In this document: positions 2,739 through 16,900 of the stretch, in pieces
How the letters are laid out: each line of letters begins with the position of its first letter
Numbering within the stretch: the stretch's first letter is position 1
Virus record (IMG/VR): IMGVR_UViG_2563366996_000005
Coordinates: 1-21,434 of that record
Length of the DNA: 21,434 nucleotides
DNA from: a virus
Taxonomy: Duplodnaviria > Heunggongvirae > Uroviricota > Caudoviricetes
Direction: 5' to 3' (one strand)
Position numbers and translations under genes: made by a program
The notes under the pieces: generated by a model
Database searches by the model: none
What the model was told of the DNA's origin: nothing
The model's input: the letters and a program-made list of their open reading frames with translations, nothing else

Positions 2739-3638
2739 TTATTTGATTATTTCTTTTATAAAGACTTCTTTCGGTTGGTATTTTTTATCTGATGATTTGA
2801 GCTGGTACGTTATTGTTATATCAGCACGTACAGAAAATTTACCTGCAAAATCTGATGGGTTTACGTTGGGGCCAAGAACCATATTTACTCTTCGATCTAT
2901 TAATCCAGGGATAACAGCAGCCCAACCTTTCTCTGGATTGTCGAGGTCTAATGCACGGATTTCAACATCAACATCAAAATGATCCTGAGTATATGACTCT
3001 GGTGTGAAGACAACTTCAGTTGGGGCTTTTTTAATGGTTTCAGCGGGAATGGTCACTGTACCACCCCCTGTACCTATGACCATCGTAGATCCTTCGTCTG
3101 CCCTAGCTGGGGCAAGCGTCTTAATGGAACTTTTGGCAAGAGTCTTCTTATTGGTTACCGTGCTTTCTATGATTGCTTGAAGACGGTCAGGTGAAATATT
3201 AGCCTCACCGGCACCAATATTGATGATTGTATTGTTATTTGCTTCAAAGTGGGAGGTGTTGCTTGGAGCCATAGCCTTAGTTGCTAGAACTAAGCCATAT
3301 CCAACCAGACCAATAACAACAGCACCAACGAGAGCGTTTCTCATTTTCCCATTTCCGATCTTTGCATGAGCGCCAGCAAGAAACTTGTCCATTTCTTCTT
3401 GGCTACCAAAGAGGAGTTTAATAACAATATCTTCATAAAGGCTTCCTGCTTCTAATCGCGCAACATGCACCGATATATCAAGGATATTAGCCCCTGTCAG
3501 TTCCTGCAAAACACCTTCTGATTGTTTTGCGATGGCCTCCCACCCTTGAAGGGAGGTAATCACATCTTTGATGCTTACAGGTTCTTTAGTTGAATAATAT
3601 ATGTTTTCGGTAAAGGTTAAAGATAATTCTTGGGACAT
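2739..3638 (-). CDS. Hypothetical 299-aa single-pass membrane protein in the rexAB-equivalent slot (between oL/pL and the repressor, same strand as the repressor)
   Basis: Track ORF. One strongly hydrophobic helix near residues 100-125 (MRNALVGAVVIGLVGYGLVLATKAMA) separates a ~100-aa N-terminal domain from a ~175-aa C-terminal domain. I recognise no family. AT-rich compared with the flanking lambda-like genes. Confidence 0.8.
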   Translation of the reverse strand: MSQELSLTFTENIYYSTKEPVSIKDVITSLQGWEAIAKQSEGVLQELTGANILDISVHVARLEAGSLYEDIVIKLLFGSQEEMDKFLAGAHAKIGNGKMRNALVGAVVIGLVGYGLVLATKAMAPSNTSHFEANNNTIINIGAGEANISPDRLQAIIESTVTNKKTLAKSSIKTLAPARADEGSTMVIGTGGGTVTIPAETIKKAPTEVVFTPESYTQDHFDVDVEIRALDLDNPEKGWAAVIPGLIDRRVNMVLGPNVNPSDFAGKFSVRADITITYQLKSSDKKYQPKEVFIKEIIK

Positions 3639-5219: not shown

Positions 5220-6119
5220 ATGACAAATACAGCAAAAATACTCAACTTCGGCAGAGGTAACTTTGCCGGACAGGAGCGTAATGTGGCAGATCTCGATGAT
5301 GGTTACGCCAGACTATCAAATATGCTGCTTGAGGCTTATTCGGGCGCAGATCTGACCAAGCGACAGTTTAAAGTGCTGCTTGCCATTCTGCGTAAAACCT
5401 ATGGGTGGAATAAACCAATGGACAGAATCACCGATTCTCAACTTAGCGAGATTACAAAGTTACCTGTCAAACGGTGCAATGAAGCCAAGTTAGAACTCGT
5501 CAGAATGAATATTATCAAGCAGCAAGGCGGCATGTTTGGACCAAACAAAAACATCTCAGAATGGTGCATCCCTCAAAACGAGGGAAAATCCCCTAAAACG
5601 AGGGATAAAACATCCCTCAAATTGGGGGATTGCTATCCCTCAAAACAGGGGGACACAAAAGACACTATTACAAAAGAAAAAAGAAAAGATTATTCGTCCG
5701 AGAATTCTGGCGAATCCTCTGACCAGCCAGAAAACGATCTTTCTGTGGTTAAACCGGATGCTGCAATTCAGAGCGGCAGTAAGTGGGGAACAGCAGAAGA
5801 CCTGACCGCCGCAGAGTGGATGTTTGACATGGTGAAGACTATCGCACCATCAGCCAGAAAACCGAATTTTGCTGGGTGGGCTAACGATATCCGCCTGATG
5901 CGTGAACGTGACGGACGTAACCACCGCGACATGTGCGTGCTGTTCCGCTGGGCCTGCCAGGACAACTTCTGGTCCGGTAACGTGCTGAGTCCGGCCAAAC
6001 TCCGCGACAAGTGGACCCAGCTCGAAATCAACCGGAACAAGCAACAGGCTGGCGTGACAGTCGGCAAACCAAAACTCGACCTGACAAACACTGACTGGAT
6101 TTACGGGGTGGATCTATGA
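5220..6119 (+). CDS. O: Replication initiator O, 299 aa
   Basis: Track ORF; translation matches recalled lambda O and the gene contains the ori iterons. Confidence 0.9.
   Translation: MTNTAKILNFGRGNFAGQERNVADLDDGYARLSNMLLEAYSGADLTKRQFKVLLAILRKTYGWNKPMDRITDSQLSEITKLPVKRCNEAKLELVRMNIIKQQGGMFGPNKNISEWCIPQNEGKSPKTRDKTSLKLGDCYPSKQGDTKDTITKEKRKDYSSENSGESSDQPENDLSVVKPDAAIQSGSKWGTAEDLTAAEWMFDMVKTIAPSARKPNFAGWANDIRLMRERDGRNHRDMCVLFRWACQDNFWSGNVLSPAKLRDKWTQLEINRNKQQAGVTVGKPKLDLTNTDWIYGVDL
5568..5700. repeat. ori-lambda: four ~19-bp iterons (ATCCCTCAAAACGAGGGA-like) followed by an AT-rich region
   Basis: Four direct repeats are visible: tccctcaaaacgaggga, tcccctaaaacgaggga, atccctcaaattggggga, atccctcaaaacaggggga. 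They are followed by an A-rich stretch (caaaagaaaaaagaaaag), all inside O. Confidence 0.85.
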
Positions 6120-6817
6120 AAAACATCGCCGCACAGATGGTTAACTTTGACCGTGAGCAGATGCGTCGGATCGCCAACAACATGCCGGAACAGTACGACG
6201 AAAAGCCACAGGTACAGCAGGTAGCGCAGATCATCAACGGTGTGTTCAGCCAGTTACTGGCAACTTTCCCGGCGAGCCTGGCTAACCGTGACCAGAACGA
6301 ACTGAACGAAATCCGCCGCCAGTGGGTTCTGGCTTTCCGGGAAAACGGGATCACCACAATGGAACAGGTTAACGCAGGAATGCGCGTAGCCCGTCGGCAG
6401 AATCGACCATTCCTGCCATCCCCCGGACAGTTTGTAGCCTGGTGCCGGGAAGAAGCATCCGTTATTGCCGGACTACCAAACACCAGCGAGCTGGTTGATA
6501 TGGTTTACGAGTATTGCCGGAAGCGTGGCCTGTATCCGGATGCAGAGTCTTATCCGTGGAAATCAAACGCGCACTACTGGCTGGTTACCAACCTGTATCA
6601 GAACATGCGGGCCAATGCGCTTACTGATGCGGAATTACGGCGCAAGGCTGCCGATGAACTGACTTGTATGACCGCGCGAATTAACCGTGGTGAGGCGATA
6701 CCTGAACCAGTAAAACAACTTCCTGTCATGGGCGGTAGACCTCTAAATCGTGCACAGGCTCTGGCGAAGATCGCAGAAATCAAAGCGAAGTTCGGACTGA
6801 AAGGAGCAACTGTATGA
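6116..6817 (+). CDS. P: Replication protein P (DnaB helicase loader), 233 aa
   Basis: Track ORF; translation matches recalled lambda P. ATGA start/stop overlap with O. Confidence 0.9.
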   Translation: MKNIAAQMVNFDREQMRRIANNMPEQYDEKPQVQQVAQIINGVFSQLLATFPASLANRDQNELNEIRRQWVLAFRENGITTMEQVNAGMRVARRQNRPFLPSPGQFVAWCREEASVIAGLPNTSELVDMVYEYCRKRGLYPDAESYPWKSNAHYWLVTNLYQNMRANALTDAELRRKAADELTCMTARINRGEAIPEPVKQLPVMGGRPLNRAQALAKIAEIKAKFGLKGATV

Positions 6818-7116
6818 CGGGCAAAGAGGCAATTATTCATTACCTGGGGACGCATAAGAGCTTCTGTGCGCAGGACGTTGCTGCGGTAACAGGCGCAACA
6901 GTAACCAGTATAAATCAGGCTGCGGCTAAAATGGCACGGGCAGGAATCTTGGTCGTTGATGGTAAGGTCTGGCGAACGGTGTATTACCGGTTCGCTACCA
7001 GGGAAGAACGGGAAGGAAAGGTGAGCACGAATCTGATTTTCAAGGAGTGTCGCCAGAGTGCCGCGATGAAACGAGTGTTGGCAGTGTATGGAGATATGAA
7101 CTTAAACTTGCTGTGA
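6814..7116 (+). CDS. ren: Ren, 100 aa, with a C-terminus that diverges from lambda Ren
   Basis: Track ORF. MTGKEAIIHYLGTH...FKECRQSAAMKRVL matches recalled lambda Ren. The last ~10 residues differ (…AVYGDMNLNLL), marking a mosaic junction. Confidence 0.8.
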   Translation: MTGKEAIIHYLGTHKSFCAQDVAAVTGATVTSINQAAAKMARAGILVVDGKVWRTVYYRFATREEREGKVSTNLIFKECRQSAAMKRVLAVYGDMNLNLL

Positions 7117-7364: not shown

Positions 7365-8761
7365 TTAAATTGCATCTGCAAACTCTGGGGTTTTTCGCTC
7401 AGGTATAATTGATGAGTTGCTGTTGTCACTTTTTTTATTTTCATGATTACGAATAGCCAATGACTCATTAAAGTCTTTTGCGACTGCTGTCTCAATAAAT
7501 TCAATTTCTGAATCAGAGTGTTTTTTAACAGCTTCTTTGATCTCATCCAGAGTAACATAGAAAAACTCTTTTCTACGATTTACAAGATTGACTCTCTTTT
7601 TATCGAAGACATCATGTAGTTTTTTTTCTAATGATGGAGCGTCCTCCGAATAAATCATGGCATGTACATCAAAAATAAAAGGAACAGATGCATCACCGAG
7701 CTCATTTACACGGTCTTGCGGATCAAGACGTCGTGTCATGCCTATTTTATAAACATTCTCCCCAAAAGAACCTATGTTCGAAATAATATAAACATGACCT
7801 TGTTTGGTTTGTTGTGCCATGGATAATGCTCTTTGATGCTTTGATTCAGCCTGCGACAAACTCTGTTCTAGTTCGGCAATGCGATTTTCGAGGCGCTGCT
7901 TCATGTCACCAGTAACTTTTTCCATTTCCTTTCTTGCAGCTTCAATTGCTTTTTTATAACGGCGCTCTTCTGCCTCTGCGTCTTGCATGGCCTTTTCTAT
8001 TTCTCGTTGTGCACGCTCCTCCTCTCTCATTTGTGCCCTTATTTCTGCCTGTTCTTCTTTTTCTTTCTGTTTTTGCTCACGATATTCATGGGTAAGCCAC
8101 AATTCCTCAAGTTTTTTATTGAGGTATTTAGTGTTTATATATATGTGATTTTGCTCGTTTAGTTTATTTATGGCCTCAAATGCCTTTGTGATGCGTTCTT
8201 CCATTTTAGTGATGTTTTTCCACGTGCAATTGCTAATTGCAGCATCACATTCATTATTAAATGCTCTAGTAGTTAGCCTGATATTTCTGTCTGTCATTTT
8301 TTTACCCTCTGCTCGAGAGCCTTCAACAGTCCATTGGGTTGTACAATATACTGCGCCAGAGTGGGTTTTATCCCGCAGCATTAATTTCTGTTCATCCCTG
8401 ATGGATTTTATTTTGTTTTTAAATTGCTCTGAATCTTCAAAATTAAAATGAGGTTCGTAAAATCCTAGTTCGGCTAGCTCAACATCTTCTGAATAAATAG
8501 AAATTTGCCTTACTAGTTTATCATATATTTCTTTCTTCTCTTTATAAGTTCTTCTTAGCTCTTGGATTTGTTTATTGATACCATCCATTTTTTCAATGGT
8601 GTTTGTTAGTTCATTATTGGCATTTTCTTTTACTTTTAGGGATTCTTCTTTTATTATGGAGCATTCTTGCTCTGTTTTCTCAATAAGCTTCTTACATTCT
8701 TCTTCTACATTAAAATAATCTGCAAAGCGAGATTTGTATTCTTCATTTTTTTGATTGCTAT
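7365..8761 (-). pseudogene. 3' portion of an IS1-split gene: coiled-coil region plus C-terminal T5orf172/GIY-YIG-like domain (longest ATG-initiated remnant ORF 7365..8588, 407 aa)
   Basis: Track ORF 7365..8588. Its frame stays open upstream for another 57 sense codons with no start codon until it enters IS1 at 8762. The C-terminal motif GHVYIISNIGSFGENVYKIGMTRRLDPQDRVNELG...PFIFDVHAMIY...LEKKLHDVF...RKEFFYV is T5orf172/GIY-YIG-like by recall. The central region is a long charged coiled coil. Confidence 0.75.
8753..8761. repeat. IS1 target-site duplication, left copy (GATTGCTAT)
   Basis: This 9-bp sequence directly abuts the IS1 end at 8762 and is identical to 9530-9538. Confidence 0.9.
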
Positions 8762-8776
8762 GGTAATGACTCCAAC

Positions 8777-9280
8777 TTATTGATAGTGTTTTATGTTCAG
8801 ATAATGCCCGATGACTTTGTCATGCAGCTCCACCGATTTTGAGAACGACAGCGACTTCCGTCCCAGCCGTGCCAGGTGCTGCCTCAGATTCAGGTTATGC
8901 CGCTCAATTCGCTGCGTATATCGCTTGCTGATTACGTGCAGCTTTCCCTTCAGGCGGGATTCATACAGCGGCCAGCCATCCGTCATCCATATCACCACGT
9001 CAAAGGGTGACAGCAGGCTCATAAGACGCCCCAGCGTCGCCATAGTGCGTTCACCGAATACGTGCGCAACAACCGTCTTCCGGAGCCTGTCATACGCGTA
9101 AAACAGCCAGCGCTGGCGCGATTTAGCCCCGACGTATCCCCACTGTTCGTCCATTTCCGCGCAGACGATGACGTCACTGCCCGGCTGTATGCGCGAGGTT
9201 ACCGACTGCGGCCTGAGTTTTTTAAATGGCGGAAAATCGTGTTGAGGCCAACGCCCATAATGCGGGCGGTTGCCCGGCAT
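8777..9280 (-). CDS. insB: IS1 InsB (transposase catalytic part, made as InsAB' by a -1 frameshift)
   Basis: Track ORF; translation matches recalled IS1 InsB. Confidence 0.9.
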
Positions 9281-9474
9281 CCAACGCCATTCATGGCCAT
9301 ATCAATGATTTTCTGGTGCGTACCGGGTTGAGAAGCGGTGTAAGTGAACTGCAGTTGCCATGTTTTACGGCAGTGAGAGCAGAGATAGCGCTGATGTCCG
9401 GCGGTGCTTTTGCCGTTACGCACCACCCCGTCAGTAGCTGAACAGGAGGGACAGCTGATAGAAACAGAAGCCAC
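9199..9474 (-). CDS. insA: IS1 InsA (transposition repressor / N-terminal part of the transposase)
   Basis: Track ORF; translation [40 protein letters not shown]... matches recalled IS1 InsA. Confidence 0.9.
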
Positions 9475-9529
9475 TGGAGCACCTCAAAAACACCATCATA
9501 CACTAAATCAGTAAGTTGGCAGCATCACC

Positions 9530-9538
9530 GATTGCTAT
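9530..9538. repeat. IS1 target-site duplication, right copy (GATTGCTAT)
   Basis: Identical 9-mer to 8753-8761, directly abutting the other IS1 end. Confidence 0.9.
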
Positions 9539-9644
9539 CACTTAATTCTAATTGTATTTTTTTGATGCGTTTGATTGCAGCTATATAAAGAACAAGAACA
9601 ACCAATAAAAATATGATTGCAAGTAATAGAGGAGTTTGAGTCAT
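9530..9644 (-). pseudogene. 5' portion of the IS1-split gene: start codon plus N-terminal transmembrane anchor
   Basis: Manual minus-strand translation from ATG at 9642-9644 (AAGGAA RBS 8 nt upstream, in-frame stop 5 codons upstream) gives MTQTPLLLAIIFLLVVLVLYIAAIKRIKKIQLELS... Joined across IS1 with one TSD copy removed, it runs in frame into the 3' portion. Confidence 0.7.
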
Positions 9645-9952
9645 TCGTGCTATTCCTTACGGACAATTTAAGACGTTTTGTATTAAATCCTGTTCAATGT
9701 GTATGCGGGTGATTGCTACCGCTTACAATCTTCATAATTATCAGTTAGATAGACTCGCTAGTAAATAATTTCATTTTTTGCAATATTCTTATTGAATATT
9801 TCAATTTATGAAATGAACTCTTTATCCTTTCAAGGTGAAAGGTTTCTTCTTCGGAAATATTTGCTCTCGTGTGACGTATAAAGACCTTTGATTTTCAAAA
9901 ATCAGTAGGGAATAATATAGTTACTGTCGGCCTGAACACCCGGTGGTGGGGT

Positions 9953-10050
9953 TGCGCTAAACGGGGACGTTTATGCGCACACACAATCCAAACTCTCATC
10001 TCCATTCACAGATGCAGAAATGCACCTACGATTTTTTACATTCGGTGTTT
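9953..10050 (+). repeat. Direct repeat R1 (~98 bp, ~90% identical to R2)
   Basis: tgcgctaaacggggacgtttatgcgcacacacaatccaaactctcatctccattcacagatgcagaaatgcacctacgattttttacattcggtgttt aligns base-for-base with 11887-11984, with about 10 mismatches. Confidence 0.85.
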
Positions 10051-10279
10051 TACTTCGACAGCCAGAATTGGGAGTCTCTATTCGTCTGGCGGCTAAAGGT
10101 GATATGGAAATCGTTATGTTTTGGCCTGAGGTAGTTGTAACTGTTGTAGCAGCTATGGATGTGATCATCATGGTGTCCATTTACTGGGGTTGACGACATG
10201 ATTTATCCGGCGCTATATTCTGTGCGTTGCCGCAAAATCGGCACACGGGATTGGCGTCCCGGGATACTACTCAACGCAT

Positions 10280-10300
10280 ACCGCGTTAAGCGGTTTTTTT
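10280..10300 (+). terminator. Candidate intrinsic terminator (short stem)
   Basis: ACCGC-GTTAA-GCGGT followed by seven T. Confidence 0.4.
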
Positions 10301-10456
10301 GTGCGCTAAGCACGGCTATGCCCAAATTATGGTGGGCTGTGTGAGGGCTTCTTCGGAAGCGCCGGGTTTGAGTAGCCGGTTACGCCAACCTTACACAGTT
10401 CACCACCAGTCGATTGGCGTCGTTGGTGGTGATGGTTAACCTGATGAGGTGATACT

Positions 10457-11065
10457 ATGACTACTCAATTAGCATTCCACAAAACGACGTTTACCCCGAT
10501 TTGCCACAATAACAGAATTTGGCTTACTGCCACTGAAGTTGGTTTAGCACTGGAATATGCGGACGATAAAGCAGTTCAGCGCATTTACTCTCGGCACTCA
10601 GATGAATTCACAGATATGATGACAAGGGTGGTCAAAGTGACCACCCCTCGTGGAATGCAGGAGTCTCGAGTATTTAGCCTTCGCGGAGCCCATTTGATCG
10701 CCATGTTTGCTCGTACTCCTGTGGCCAAAGAATTCCGCCGCTGGGTTCTGGATATTCTCGATCGAGAAGTTCAACAATCCCCAATCACAAAACAATTCAC
10801 TGATAACGAACTTTGCACACTCGCCTGGTTATGGCGAGCAAGTGATACGATGTTAACCGCCTGCCAGAACGTTACGCCCCTTCTTCAGGTCGCAGAGCAT
10901 CGCGAAGCAGGTAGATTCACTTCAATCGAACAAGAATATCCTCGGATACTCAACAGGGCGCGAGAAATCCTTGCCAGAGAAACGGCGCATGTAAAATTCC
11001 AACCGTGGCAGGATGATAAGTGGAGTCGTGTGTTACCATATTTCCGTCAGAATCTGTTGCAATAA
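10457..11065 (+). CDS. Bro-N domain protein (antirepressor-like / Rha-like regulator), 202 aa
   Basis: Track ORF. The N-terminal ~100 aa has the Bro-N pattern (…FHKTTFTPICHNNRIWLTATEVGLALEY…RVFSLRGAHLIAMFARTPVAKEFRRWVLDIL) by recall. A terminator follows. Confidence 0.7.
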   Translation: MTTQLAFHKTTFTPICHNNRIWLTATEVGLALEYADDKAVQRIYSRHSDEFTDMMTRVVKVTTPRGMQESRVFSLRGAHLIAMFARTPVAKEFRRWVLDILDREVQQSPITKQFTDNELCTLAWLWRASDTMLTACQNVTPLLQVAEHREAGRFTSIEQEYPRILNRAREILARETAHVKFQPWQDDKWSRVLPYFRQNLLQ

Positions 11066-11085
11066 AGTCACTAGTTAGAAATACT

Positions 11086-11125
11086 GCCAGCATTCTGCGA
11101 TGACGGAAGTGCTGGCATTTTTTTT
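11086..11125 (+). terminator. Intrinsic terminator after the Bro-N gene
   Basis: GCCAGCA-(17 nt loop)-TGCTGGC followed by ATTTTTTTT. Confidence 0.5.
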
Positions 11126-11300
11126 GGTAATGTGCGAGTCCATTTCATAAAATACGGGTACTGGAACTGGACGATATAATCTAAAAGATACCATTATCAG
11201 TAGCATTAAAATCGCTATGTGCCGATACGGATATAAATTATATTGATTGTTCACATACCTTATTGGATATTACTGAGGGGTGTTTATATAAGGTGTAACG

Positions 11301-11810
11301 ATGATGTGGAACTTTGACAGTGCCGACTTAAGTGCAATAGCAGCAGGCATTTCTGCGTTTGGCACATTAGCCGCAGCGGGGTCGGCGCTTGCAAGTTGGT
11401 GCACGTCAAAAAAAGCGCTGCAGCTACAAAATAGAGTTTACCTTTATGAGTCTTTAAAGGCTTGCGCTGAGAGAGCCAATTCATCAGCTAAAGATAAGCG
11501 CGGATCTGAATGGAGCGTTAATGATGCAGCGGATATCATCAGGTGCCTAGTACGGGCGATGGAGCTCATCAAGCAGGATAGCCAGCAGAAAGAAGGTAAT
11601 CAGGCATTAATGTTGAAACAGTACTTTGTTAATCTGCTAATAATGGAACTGTACGAGGAAGTTCATAACGGTGATGCGGCTGATTCTGTTTTTAAAAGTA
11701 CGGAACCTACACAAGTACTTGATAACTTATGGAGCAAATGGCAGGAGGCTATAGCTTTTTTTGATATTTGGAATTACCCAGTTGCGACTGAGGAAGACTT
11801 GGCAGACTAA
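11301..11810 (+). CDS. Hypothetical 169-aa protein with an N-terminal hydrophobic segment
   Basis: Track ORF. It is preceded by ~170 bp of AT-rich sequence and a GAGGGG RBS-like element. The N-terminus LSAIAAGISAFGTLAAAGSALASW is hydrophobic. I recognise no family. Confidence 0.65.
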   Translation: MMWNFDSADLSAIAAGISAFGTLAAAGSALASWCTSKKALQLQNRVYLYESLKACAERANSSAKDKRGSEWSVNDAADIIRCLVRAMELIKQDSQQKEGNQALMLKQYFVNLLIMELYEEVHNGDAADSVFKSTEPTQVLDNLWSKWQEAIAFFDIWNYPVATEEDLAD

Positions 11811-11886
11811 TTTTCAGCACATTTGATTTCCAATAATCAACCAGCCATAATCATGCCATTGGAGCTTGAACAACTCCGGTGACTTC

Positions 11887-11984
11887 TGCGCTAAACGGGG
11901 ACGTTTATGCGCACATACAATCCAAACTCTCTTCTCCCTTCACAGATGCAGAGATGCACCTGCGATTTTTTGCATCCAGCGTTT
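11887..11984 (+). repeat. Direct repeat R2 (~98 bp), immediately upstream of ninB
   Basis: See R1. Each copy begins a short ORF (R1 9973..10134, R2 11907..12008) with a conserved N-terminus MRT(H/Y)NPNS(H/L)L(H/P)SQMQ(K/R)CT(Y/C)DFLH. Confidence 0.85.
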
Positions 11985-12004
11985 GACCTCTGCGGAGGTG
12001 AAGC

Positions 12005-12460
12005 GTGAACCTCCCACAAGACGGCATCAAATTGCATCGTGGTAACTTCACCGCTATCGGCCAGCAGATCCAGCCTTATCTGGAGGAAGGCAAATGCTTT
12101 CGCATGGTGCTTAAACCGTGGCGTGAGAAACGCAGTCTTTCCCAGAATGCACTCAGCCACATGTGGTACAGCGAAATCAGTGAATACCTCATCAGCAGGG
12201 GTAAAACGTTCGCCACTCCAGCTTGGGTAAAAGATGCTCTCAAACACACATATCTCGGTTATGAAACCAAAGACCTGGTTGATGTCGTAACCGGTGAGAT
12301 CACCACTATCCAGTCGTTACGCCATACCTCCGATCTTGATACCGGAGAGATGTATATCTTCCTGTGTAAGGTTGAAGCCTGGGCGGTGAATATTGGCTGC
12401 CACCTGACTATTCCGCAGAGCTGCGAGTTCCAGCTGCTGCGCGACAAGCAGGAGGCGTAA
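12005..12460 (+). CDS. ninB: NinB-like recombination protein (lambda Orf family), 151 aa, GTG start
   Basis: Track ORF. Family assigned by recall from similarity to lambda NinB (for example around [16 protein letters not shown]) and by its position at the start of the nin region. Confidence 0.65.
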
Positions 12461-13409: not shown

Positions 13410-13494
13410 AGTCAGAGATAACAATCAACTAATACTGTTTTGCTGATTTTTGCTTGTAATTGGCGTTCTGGTCTGAGTTTTGTGGAGTAAGTTG

Positions 13495-13878
13495 ATGCGT
13501 GATATTCAGATGGTTCTTGAGCGTTGGGGAGCGTGGGCGGCTAATAATCATGAAGATGTGACCTGGTCGTCCATTGCCGCCGGTTTTAAGGGATTAATTC
13601 CTTCAAAAGTAAAATCTCGCCCGCAATGTTGTGACGATGACGCGATGATCATTTGCGGGTGCATGGCCCGTCTGAAAAAGAACAACAGCGATTTGCACGA
13701 TTTATTAGTAGATTATTATGTAGTCGGTATGACATTCATGTCACTGGCAGGTAAGCATTGCTGCTCTGATGGTTATATCGGGAAAAGGTTACAAAAGGCT
13801 GAGGGCATAATTGAAGGGATGTTAATGGCATTAGATATCCGGTTAGAGATGGATATCGTTGTTAATAACTCTAATTAA
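13495..13878 (+). CDS. Q: Q-like late antiterminator (short form, QuuD-like), 127 aa
   Basis: Track ORF 13480..13878. The internal ATG at 13495 has a GGAG RBS. Cys-rich ([20 protein letters not shown]). It sits in the Q position upstream of the lysis genes. DLP12 QuuD similarity is recalled. Confidence 0.75.
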
Positions 13879-14067: not shown

Positions 14068-15150
14068 TTAGAACTGGTAAACCAGACCTACAGCAACGAT
14101 GTCATCAGTATCAATACCAGCTGTTTTGGTAAACTTACTATCGTCAATTAAGTTGATTTTGTAATCAACAAAAGTGGACATGTTTTTATTAAAGTAGTAA
14201 GTAGCACCGACATCGACATACTTGACTAAGTCTCGGTCACCATGAACACCAAGGTCTTTACCTTTTGACTGAAGGTAAGCAACAGATGGGCGCAGACCGA
14301 AGTCAAACTGATATTGTGCTACTGCTTCAAAGTTTTGTGCTTTGTTTGCAATATGGTTATTACCAAAAACGGTCATATTCTGAGTTTCAGAATATGTGGT
14401 AGCCAGATAGATATTGTTCGCATCATATTTCAGGCCTGCAGCCCATACTTCCGCATTTTTGCCGGAGGCATTGAATTTGCTCTTACCATAGGCGACCTGA
14501 CCGTCAGTGCGATCTGATTTAGCATAGGTTGCACCCACGCCGAATCCTTCATACTCATAAGTAGTGGAGAAACCGAAACCATCACCATTGGCTTCAGTTA
14601 CGTCAGTGCGGTCATTTTTACCCTGATACTGAGCAGCAAAGTTCAGGCCATCGACCAGACCAAAGAAGTCGTTGTTACGATAAGTTGCAACACCAGTAGT
14701 GCGACCAGTCATGAACACATCTGTTTGGGTCCAGGTATCACCACCGAATTCTGGCAGGACGTCAGTCCACGCACCGATGTCGTATGCTACACCGTAGTTA
14801 CGGCCGTAATCGATTGAGCCGTAATCACCAAATTTCAGGCCTGCAAATGCAAGACGGGTTTTGTCTTTGGAAGAACCTTGAGATTCAGCGCGGTTGCCTT
14901 TGAATTCATATTCCCACTGACCGAAACCAGTCAGTTGATCGTTGATTTGGGTTTCACCTTTGAAGCCAAGACGGGCATAAGTAGTATCACCATCATCTGC
15001 ATCATTAGAGGAGAAGTAGTGCTTAGCATTAACTTTCCCGTACAGATCCAGCTTGTTACTGTCTTTATTATAAATTTCAGCTGCCTGAGCAGACATCGCC
15101 ATCAGTACTGATGCAGCTACAGCAGAAATTGCCACTGTTAATTTTTTCAT
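14068..15150 (-). CDS. Outer-membrane general porin (OmpC/OmpF/NmpC/Lc family), 360 aa with signal peptide
   Basis: Track ORF. Signal peptide [23 protein letters not shown] and a C-terminal ...VGLVYQF end typical of 16-strand porins. Gly/Tyr-rich beta-barrel pattern. Opposite strand to the Q and lysis genes. Confidence 0.9.
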
Positions 15151-15723: not shown

Positions 15724-15939
15724 ATGAAATCCATGGATAAGTTAACAACGGGTGTCGCCTATGGCACCTCAGCAGGTAGTGCCGGGTACTGGTTTTTACA
15801 GCTGCTCGATAAAGTCACGCCCTCACAGTGGGCAGCAATAGGTGTGCTGGGTAGCCTGGTATTTGGCCTGCTGACGTACCTGACAAACCTTTATTTCAAG
15901 ATTAAAGAAGATAAGCGCAAGGCTGCGAGAGGTGAATAA
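15724..15939 (+). CDS. S: Class II holin/pinholin, phage 21 S21 type, 71 aa with dual-start motif (M1-K-S-M4)
   Basis: Track ORF. MKSMDK...[13 protein letters not shown]...[35 protein letters not shown] closely matches recalled S21. Two transmembrane segments. Confidence 0.85.
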
Positions 15940-16436
15940 TGCCTCCATCATTACGAAAAGCTGTTGCTGCTGCTATTGGTGGCGGGGCTATTGCTATAGC
16001 ATCTGTGTTAATCACTGGCCCAAGTGGTAACGATGGTCTGGAAGGTGTGAGACATAATCCTTACAAAGACATAGTTGGTGTATGGACTGTATGTTACGGG
16101 CATACAGGAAAAGACATCATTCCCGGTAAAACGTATACCGAAGCAGAGTGCAAAGCCCTCCTGAATAAAGACCTTGCCACTGTCGCCAGACAAATTAACC
16201 GGTACATCAAAGTCGATATACCGGAAACAACGCGCGGCGCTCTTTACTCGTTCGTCTACAACGTGGGTGCTGGCAATTTCAGAACATCGACGCTTCTTCG
16301 CAAAATAAACCAGGGTGATATTAAAGGCGCATGTGATCAGCTACGGCGCTGGACATACGCTGGCGGTAATCAATGGAAAGGACTGATGACTCGCCGTGAG
16401 ATTGAGCGTGAAGTCTGTTTGTGGGGGAAACAATGA
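15939..16436 (+). CDS. R: SAR endolysin (T4-lysozyme-like, R21 type), 165 aa
   Basis: Track ORF. N-terminal signal-anchor-release segment [20 protein letters not shown], then a lysozyme-like catalytic region (E...D...T pattern: [24 protein letters not shown]). Confidence 0.85.
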
Positions 16437-16900
16437 GCAGAGTAACCGCGATTATCTCCGCTCTGGTTATCTGCATCATCGTCTGCCTGTCATGGGCTGT
16501 TAATCATTACCGTGATAATGCAATCGCCTACAAAGAACAGCGCGATAACAAGGCCAGTGAACTGGAGAAGGCGAACGCCACCATTACTGACATGCAGCAG
16601 CGCCAGCGTGATGCTGATGCACTCGATGATAAATACACGAAGGAGTTAGCTGATGCGAAAGCTGAAAATGATGCTCTTCGGCGCAAGCTTGATAATGGTG
16701 GTCGGGTGCTCGTCAAAGGAAAATGCCCTGTGCCATCCTCAGCCGAAACCTCCAGCGCCTCCGGCATGGGCAATGATGCCACCGTCGAACTCTCTCCAGT
16801 TGCTGGACGAAACGTTCTCGGTATCCGGGACGGAATTATCCGCGACCAAACAGCATTGAGAACGCTTCAGGAATACATCAGGACGCAATGCCTTCGATGA
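16433..16900 (+). CDS. Rz: Rz i-spanin, ~155 aa
   Basis: Track ORF 16421..16900. The likely start is ATG 16433, ATGA-coupled to the endolysin stop. N-terminal TM segment, then a coiled-coil periplasmic domain. Confidence 0.8.
16653..16859 (+). CDS. Rz1: Rz1 o-spanin lipoprotein, embedded in the +1 frame of Rz
   Basis: Track ORF. Lipobox LIMVVGC followed by a proline-rich segment [11 protein letters not shown]. Entirely inside Rz. Confidence 0.7.

Follow-up and report, generated by a model that had tools for sequence, protein, structure and literature searches.

We have analysed ORF169, a small gene in a lambda-like Escherichia coli prophage (IMG/VR record IMGVR_UViG_2563366996_000005; its whole stretch of 21,434 nucleotides (nt) is called the window below). 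ORF169 fits a stand-alone accessory (moron-type) gene of temperate enterobacterial phages, and its predicted anatomy matches that of a single-pass inner-membrane protein. Judged solely from its location and architecture, it may encode a prophage-expressed superinfection-exclusion or abortive-infection protein of the inner membrane, a reading to which we give a probability of about 0.4. A benefit to the lysogen is suggested because the gene sits in a slot used by defence genes, its family is limited to temperate elements, it has no partner gene and it lies behind an independent promoter-like block. An earlier note on this DNA had listed exclusion, anti-defence and host modulation as possible roles; only location, membrane anchoring and the restriction to temperate elements lean towards exclusion or defence. 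The cassette and the predicted parts of its product are as follows.

11085-11127, plus strand: intrinsic terminator closing the isrK/C4-antirepressor unit, with a stem of 12-13 base pairs (bp) followed by T8
11128-11300, plus strand: AT-rich upstream region of 173 nt, forming one cassette with ORF169
11243-11248, plus strand: candidate -35 element TTGATT, preceded by an AT-rich UP-like tract
11255-11283, plus strand: imperfect inverted repeat around the -10 element (ATACCTT ... AGGGGTGT; degenerate), which reads ATACCCTG...CAGGGTAT in relatives
11266-11271, plus strand: candidate -10 element GATATT after a 17-nt spacer, with a predicted transcription start at about 11276-11279
11290-11295, plus strand: Shine-Dalgarno sequence AAGGTG, 5 nt ahead of the ATG, with AGG or GAGG at the same place in homologues
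11301-11810, plus strand: ORF169 coding sequence, ATG start, 169 amino acids (aa), RefSeq WP_000990010.1
11328-11399, plus strand: predicted single transmembrane helix, residues 10-33 (hydropathy, flanking charges, conservation and AlphaFold2 model)
11400-11786, plus strand: predicted acidic cytoplasmic helical bundle, residues 34-162 (AlphaFold2 model and conserved columns)
11787-11807, plus strand: acidic C-terminal tail T-E-E-D-L-A-D, residues 163-169 (family consensus T-D-E-D-L-x-D)
11822-12004, plus strand: conserved lambdoid element at the right edge of the slot, with putative -35 and -10 elements, an inverted repeat and the orf33 leader, which begins the next unit

The placing of ORF169 in an accessory cargo slot, already proposed in the earlier note, agrees well with what is found in sister prophages. 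The slot lies between the antirepressor terminator and the orf33-ybcN element, and other E. coli prophages keep both flanks while they swap the genes between them; on these alignments the slot is one of variable cargo. The occupants that replace ORF169 are the following.

BstA, in other E. coli prophages (PADLOC E = 3.6e-121; no Pfam match)
A HEPN protein with an overlapping 133-aa partner, L010 2943-3739 (weak PADLOC match to PDC-M28A)
A pair of 58 and 210 aa, L011 2051-2856 (no family matches)
An alpha/beta hydrolase, on the opposite strand

The junctions of the slot are sharp, the left one near the antirepressor stop codon and terminator and the right one at about 11822, 12 nt past the ORF169 stop codon. 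Since the alignments place the junctions there, the cassette is taken to span about 11128-11821, AT-rich upstream region included. Homology to prophages with other cargo ends near the end of the antirepressor gene and its terminator, and 11128-11300 is specific to the ORF169 cassette. On the right, the orf33 stop codon overlaps the GTG start of ybcN; about 2,500 E. coli genomes carry this element, which is annotated in the phage 82 record X92588. SNIPE (PD-Lambda-1), the upstream neighbour, lies 1.5 kb from ORF169. Homology of ORF169 to the alternative 210-aa cargo protein was considered and rejected (hhalign probability of about 0.1).

All of the approximately 40 E. coli loci from IMG/VR carry ORF169 and its 235-nt upstream region (94-100% identical) behind a P22_AR_C gene. 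The latter exists in two variants, one controlled by isrK/C4 and another, similar only in its C-terminal 311 nt or so, which adjoins Arc genes in PhiR5_1-like and L011-type loci. Such constancy (about 40 of about 40) across two antirepressor variants would suit a partner of the antirepressor module, that is, a membrane tether sequestering the antirepressor or the repressor and tuning induction or immunity. We consider this very unlikely, however: a strong terminator separates the two genes, the same antirepressor precedes BstA or HEPN genes in other prophages, and outside E. coli the upstream neighbour varies (DUF551, methyltransferase, unknown or theta-like genes) and is never an antirepressor. 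Because the linkage is found in E. coli only, with a terminator between the genes and other cargo following the antirepressor elsewhere, it is best explained by recombination breakpoints.

The signals ahead of ORF169 point to a separate transcription unit. That the gene follows a terminator, as claimed in the earlier note, was borne out: directly after the antirepressor stop codon, the stem arms TGCCAGCATTCTGC...GGAAGTGCTGGCA are followed by T8, and the 70-nt region folds at -22.7 kcal/mol (z = -2.98), with 2 of 200 shuffles as stable. The hairpin, which a simple terminator scan overlooked owing to its loop length, is 94-100% conserved in all E. coli loci with ORF169. The stretch of about 170 bp reported as AT-rich is so as well, at 34.1% GC against 45.8% for the window; it is AT-rich without being extreme, 8.7% of equal-length windows being as AT-rich. 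Within it lies a promoter-like block that recurs in 8 of 8 lineages, whose proteins are down to about 50% identical and whose DNA farther upstream is unrelated. It consists of an AT-rich tract, TTG(A/C)nn, a spacer of exactly 17 nt and GATATT, with the start codon 26-30 nt farther on; GATATT(A) is invariant, and in all eight lineages TTG stands exactly 23 nt ahead of GATATT. In an ungapped identity profile anchored on GATATT, mean pairwise identity is 0.23-0.29 at -90..-51, 0.78 at -30..-21 and 0.79 at 0..+9; in the block it is 0.66-0.79 against a background of 0.23-0.29. On our reading ORF169 would have a sigma-70 promoter of its own (about 11243-11271), and its transcription would therefore probably extend to the lysogen.

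The inverted repeat around the -10 element was considered as an RNA hairpin or attenuator and rejected, RNAalifold on the eight lineages giving -2.97 kcal/mol with negligible covariation and compensatory changes in 1 of 6 pairs. An operator shared with the immunity region was rejected too, the motif being present once in the window and once per locus. Because covariation is negligible and the motif is unique per locus, the repeat is kept as a possible DNA operator for some regulator, and a DNA site fits better than an RNA hairpin.

ORF169 is a genuine coding gene under purifying selection as judged from sequence divergence, because the ratio of non-synonymous to synonymous substitution rates (dN/dS) is 0.09-0.31 against diverged homologues (60-88% identity) wherever dS is unsaturated. 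The deep comparisons contrast with the 12 E. coli nucleotide alleles (L004 and L022-L067), which differ by 15 distinct non-synonymous and 4 synonymous changes, with C34Y and L89I, for example, present in most of them; L059 is frameshifted and L068 is cut off at residue 68. A second in-frame ATG at 11304 offers an alternative start and is the sole one in an allele group where codon 1 is ATA. As in a moron-type gene, the composition of ORF169 differs from that of the flanking core genes: its GC content is 44.5%, and 0.43 at third codon positions (GC3), against GC3 values of 0.57-0.61 for P and ybcN.

The hydrophobic N-terminal segment noticed earlier is indeed present. It covers residues 12-30, with a mean Kyte-Doolittle score of 1.59, and is the sole one in the protein; each of 30 family members has one hydrophobic helix within its first 45 residues. 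Ahead of the helix, 26 of the 30 contain neither lysine nor arginine, and the net charge is negative in 26 and zero in the rest; the 15 residues after the helix hold 2-6 lysines or arginines. Because the positive-inside rule was applied to these flanking charges, an N-out/C-in topology is predicted, which places a short N-terminus in the periplasm and the C-terminal domain in the cytoplasm. A Sec signal peptide was rejected, as the N-terminal flank lacks lysine and arginine, these residues cluster after the segment, and the ALA-S found here is not conserved (AAFLS, AAFQS and AAIIS in others). The helix is rich in alanine, glycine and serine, with A26, A29 and the invariant S32 on one face; these are 3 of the 14 most conserved columns of the family. 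Their conservation at a spacing of three residues suggests that the helix packs against something and is more than an anchor.

The cytoplasmic part carries a net charge of -9 and conserved motifs in the bundle, namely AERAN, (S/D)W-x-x-x-D-A-A-N-I (with W71), K-x-Y-F, PPD and W147...FF. In the tail, T-[DE]-[DE]-D-L-x-D, residues T163, E165, D166, L167 and D169 are invariant in 13 close homologues, and the motif is kept in most distant members. The AlphaFold2 model from a 30-sequence alignment (predicted local distance difference test score (pLDDT) of 82.7, predicted template modelling score of 0.69) consists of a long helix over residues 7-63, hydrophobic in its first part, and another four to five helices packed into a compact bundle. 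It has no significant fold neighbour. A HEPN ribonuclease was considered and rejected, there being no arginine 5-7 residues ahead of any histidine, and Foldseek comparisons with HepT/HEPN giving E > 0.5 and a template modelling score of about 0.27.

The small size of the protein and its single Ala/Gly/Ser-rich helix, whose conserved face suits helix-helix packing, are also features of what could be a small membrane toxin or a lysis-timing or cell-division factor (Kil-, holin- or Hok-like), with an oligomerising helix that damages or permeabilises the inner membrane; the inverted repeat over the -10 element would then suggest that expression is held down. Yet a conserved cytoplasmic part of about 130 residues, several invariant motifs included, looks more like a binding domain than a simple pore peptide, the gene lies outside the lysis cassette (15724-16900), no conserved antitoxin or antisense partner adjoins it, and no Pfam holin or toxin family was matched. 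Such a role is therefore quite unlikely. A holin in particular was rejected, since the lysis genes are 4 kb off and no holin family was matched.

The description of ORF169 as an orphan without a recognised family holds in part. Neither its own sequence nor the 30-sequence profile matched anything in Pfam, NCBIfam, PADLOC or the PDB sequences. On the other hand, ORF169 aligns over its full length to the phrog_1779 profile (residues 1-169 to 1-169 of 169, E = 1.7e-102, 341 bits), as do all of the 30 diverse homologues to PHROG 1779. By profile comparison ORF169 is thus a member of PHROG 1779 and not a true orphan; this group is annotated as of unknown function and has no Pfam or NCBIfam counterpart. 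Profile search and structure prediction, both suggested in the earlier note, gave no confident homology to a known structural or regulatory protein.

The family is a small one. Its homologues reach down to about 22% identity and form 14 clusters at 90% identity among 5.8 billion proteins, and a profile search of 1.84 billion representatives returned 34 members, almost all of 150-180 aa. The exact protein (WP_000990010.1) is found on at least 1,000 contigs, and the cassette in 178 of 5,426 complete E. coli genomes (about 3%). Among 50,697 phage records only two carry the family, both of them temperate ECOR phages (PhiR26_1 and PhiR5_1). Small cargo genes in variable slots of prophages, with exclusion as a candidate role, are of a familiar kind; the family itself is without known function, domain, structure or literature.

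All of the approximately 17 distinct contexts examined are temperate elements, and no constant partner gene accompanies the family across them. Other Enterobacteriaceae have lambdoid prophages in which the gene, down to 34% identity, comes after the replication genes and before ninB/DUF1367, rusA or Q. In P1-like plasmids a family member lies just upstream of phd-doc; P1 itself presumably carries hot, lxr and humD in the region near phd-doc. One relative of 31% identity (L070 5756-6519) overlaps a gene resembling DNA polymerase III theta (HolE/P1 Hot) by 4 nt, within a P2/P4-like element where AlpA, an integrase and a retron (RVT_1 + SLATT_5) adjoin, and another relative is two genes from the integrase at a prophage end. 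Non-coding gaps usually surround the family gene, of 80-165 nt upstream and 140-350 nt downstream, where nearby early genes are tightly packed or overlapping. Terminators also lie downstream of it in the relatives L014 and L076, and this isolation counts in favour of the stand-alone reading.

Several observations weigh against an exclusion or abortive-infection protein expressed by the prophage. In every lambdoid context, even at 34% identity, the gene has the orientation of the early-right (pR) operon, and in some relatives it stands just 35-110 nt behind early-operon genes. With gaps as short as these, read-through from pR is equally possible. In the window there is no convincing terminator between 11811, just past the ORF169 stop codon, and the orf33-ybcN element. 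Of the promoter and the independence from the early operon that the earlier note had proposed, the conserved block in eight lineages and the separate unit behind a terminator stand. The candidate promoter itself scores only 8/12 to the consensus and was skipped by a scan at 9/12, which reported just one weak site upstream of ORF169, at 11124-11153. The block is missing in three lineages (L014/L064, L018 and L002), so by sequence comparison it belongs to the main clade only, and in L003 the upstream gap is only 35 nt and is occupied by a terminator-like hairpin. The hydrophobic segment of this allele is marginal (the score of 1.59 above). None of the 5,027 defence models of PADLOC-DB v2 matched ORF169 at E <= 10, and the literature gave no match for PhiR26_1 or WP_000990010, while the three accessions looked for were not in the DefensePredictor supplements. 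Finally, sharing the slot with defence genes amounts to guilt by association, and an alpha/beta hydrolase is among the alternative occupants.

The orientation between the replication genes and ninB/rusA/Q, and transcripts that would run into orf33-ybcN for lack of a downstream terminator, are what would be expected of a delayed-early lytic accessory protein, made mainly by N-antiterminated read-through from pR for the phage's own development and giving no protection to the lysogen. It could, for example, modulate a host membrane protein or protease, counter host defence, or help replication or recombination at the membrane. The strong acidity of ORF169 (net -9) adds to this, many anti-restriction and DNA-mimic proteins being strongly acidic, and so does the relative that overlaps the theta/Hot-like gene. 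Nevertheless, no virulent phage among the records searched carried a member of the family, and some members lie outside early operons, at prophage ends by integrases and, in one case, on a P1-like plasmid beside phd-doc. A promoter-like block and flanking gaps would be superfluous for a gene within an operon, the slot is dispensable and is filled by unrelated genes in sister prophages, and a membrane anchor is unusual among anti-defence proteins. We consider a delayed-early role, including the activities just named, the chief rival but somewhat unlikely, and it is compatible with exclusion or abortive infection, the two not being mutually exclusive.

If ORF169 is an exclusion or abortive-infection protein, its short acidic N-terminus would lie in the periplasm, with the acidic five-helix domain and the conserved acidic tail on the cytoplasmic face of the membrane. 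The packing partner of the small-residue transmembrane helix may be another copy of the helix or a membrane protein of the host. ORF169 would act at the membrane against superinfecting phages, possibly by interfering with genome entry; alternatively, membrane failure (abortive infection) could be set off once the protein senses a phage component that is injected or made early. A bolder proposal, which we put forward tentatively and hold to be rather improbable, is that phrog_1779 represents an unrecognised single-protein anti-phage system, a membrane sensor or blocker working by entry block or by abortive collapse of the membrane. In such a system the conserved helix face would dock on the entry route of siphophages (e.g. 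the ManYZ or PtsG complexes) or self-assemble, an injected phage component would be captured by the acidic bundle together with the invariant DEDLxD tail, and the promoter would carry an operator for a regulator.

The exclusion or abortive-infection reading has parallels among known systems. Lambda and P22 SieB, P22 SieA, T4 Imm and HK97 gp15 are small inner-membrane superinfection-exclusion proteins; proteins of this type come from accessory phage genes whose expression is separate from that of the main operons, and they target incoming phages at the inner membrane. ORF169 shares no homology with them, and its topology and domain content differ. The window itself has a SieB superinfection-exclusion gene at 1390-1971. 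Homology to SieB (PF14163) was rejected, there being no Pfam match and a probability of 0.14 when the family was compared by hhalign with the window's SieB. BstA, a prophage-encoded abortive-infection protein, occupies exactly the slot of ORF169 in other E. coli prophages and is likewise a single gene, but it has 309 aa and no detectable similarity to ORF169. SNIPE (formerly PD-Lambda-1) is a membrane-bound nuclease that cleaves phage DNA during injection (PMC13190303). Like ORF169, it is cargo of lambdoid prophages in the post-replication region and the product of one gene, and it has the N-terminal membrane anchor and the working domain in the cytoplasm that are predicted for ORF169; however, SNIPE has about 500 aa with DUF4041 and a T5orf172 nuclease, whereas ORF169 has 169 aa, is all-helical and has neither a nuclease motif nor sequence similarity to it. 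The abortive-infection protein HepS was found in PMC13043305.

Should a role in exclusion or defence be true, the defence repertoire of prophages would gain, with ORF169, a very small membrane-anchored family that needs a single gene and has no known domain. The interval from the antirepressor to orf33-ybcN would then be a second cargo hotspot of lambdoid prophages, beside the interval from ren to the antirepressor in which SNIPE lies. If ORF169 is an early lytic gene instead, it would be one more accessory gene of the nin region, of modest interest. In either case the cassette is only 0.7 kb long and is carried by two inducible ECOR phages (PhiR26_1 and PhiR5_1), which makes it easily testable.

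As for the surroundings of the cassette, the greater part of the window is near-identical to Escherichia phage PhiR26_1 (PV340555), and the two differ in the immunity region. Its other genes and elements lie as follows.

5220-7116: O, P and ren
7365-8588, minus strand: PD-Lambda-1 (SNIPE), with an N-terminal remnant at 9525-9644, minus strand
8762-9529: IS1 element of 768 bp
10228-10300: isrK-like RNA (Rfam, 58.7 bits), in non-coding DNA together with the C4 RNA
10325-10410: C4 antisense RNA (Rfam, 74.8 bits), directly 5' of the antirepressor gene
10457-11065: Bro-N/P22_AR_C antirepressor-type gene
12005-12460: ybcN (ninB-like), preceded by orf33 and followed by ybcO and rusA
13480-13878: Q
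14068-15150, minus strand: porin gene of OmpC/NmpC type, between Q and the lysis genes
15724-16900: lysis genes, with the terminase beyond

The IS1 element, flanked by a 9-bp target duplication (GATTGCTAT, at 8753-8761 and 9530-9538), breaks PD-Lambda-1/SNIPE near codon 35, which leaves the transmembrane N-terminus cut off from the part with DUF4041 and T5orf172; in PhiR26_1 the gene is unbroken. Farther on, isrK, C4 and the antirepressor gene look like a P1 immI-type antisense-controlled unit that terminates at the 11085-11127 hairpin, and the top promoter-like site of the region, TTGACG-18-TATATT (10/12) at 10190-10219, lies ahead of the isrK-like and C4 RNAs.

In the left part of the window, a lambda cIII thermoregulator RNA element was detected at 643-701 on the minus strand. 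An open reading frame of 299 aa (2739-3638, minus strand) adjoins the cI repressor gene, at the position of rexAB in lambda; with no Pfam match above threshold and no PADLOC match, it is another uncharacterised cargo candidate.

Two repeats were also seen around the antirepressor unit and ORF169. The first is a 16-nt inverted repeat (15 of 16 positions complementary) at 9805-9820 and 11136-11151, with its arms 1.3 kb apart. The arms were considered as the ends of a mobile unit and this was rejected, the right arm being present in all E. coli ORF169 loci and the left one in a subset only; they are probably not a functional pair. The second is a direct repeat of about 170 nt (with a core of 104 nt, 89% identical) at 9885-10056 and 11822-11990, which flanks the block from isrK and C4 through the antirepressor to ORF169, and whose second copy is the orf33-ybcN element. 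Each copy holds a promoter-like sequence, TTGATT-17-(C/A)ATAAT, a hairpin and the start of a small leader open reading frame; the loop of the hairpin, CCTGAACA, is conserved, and its stem varies among phages.

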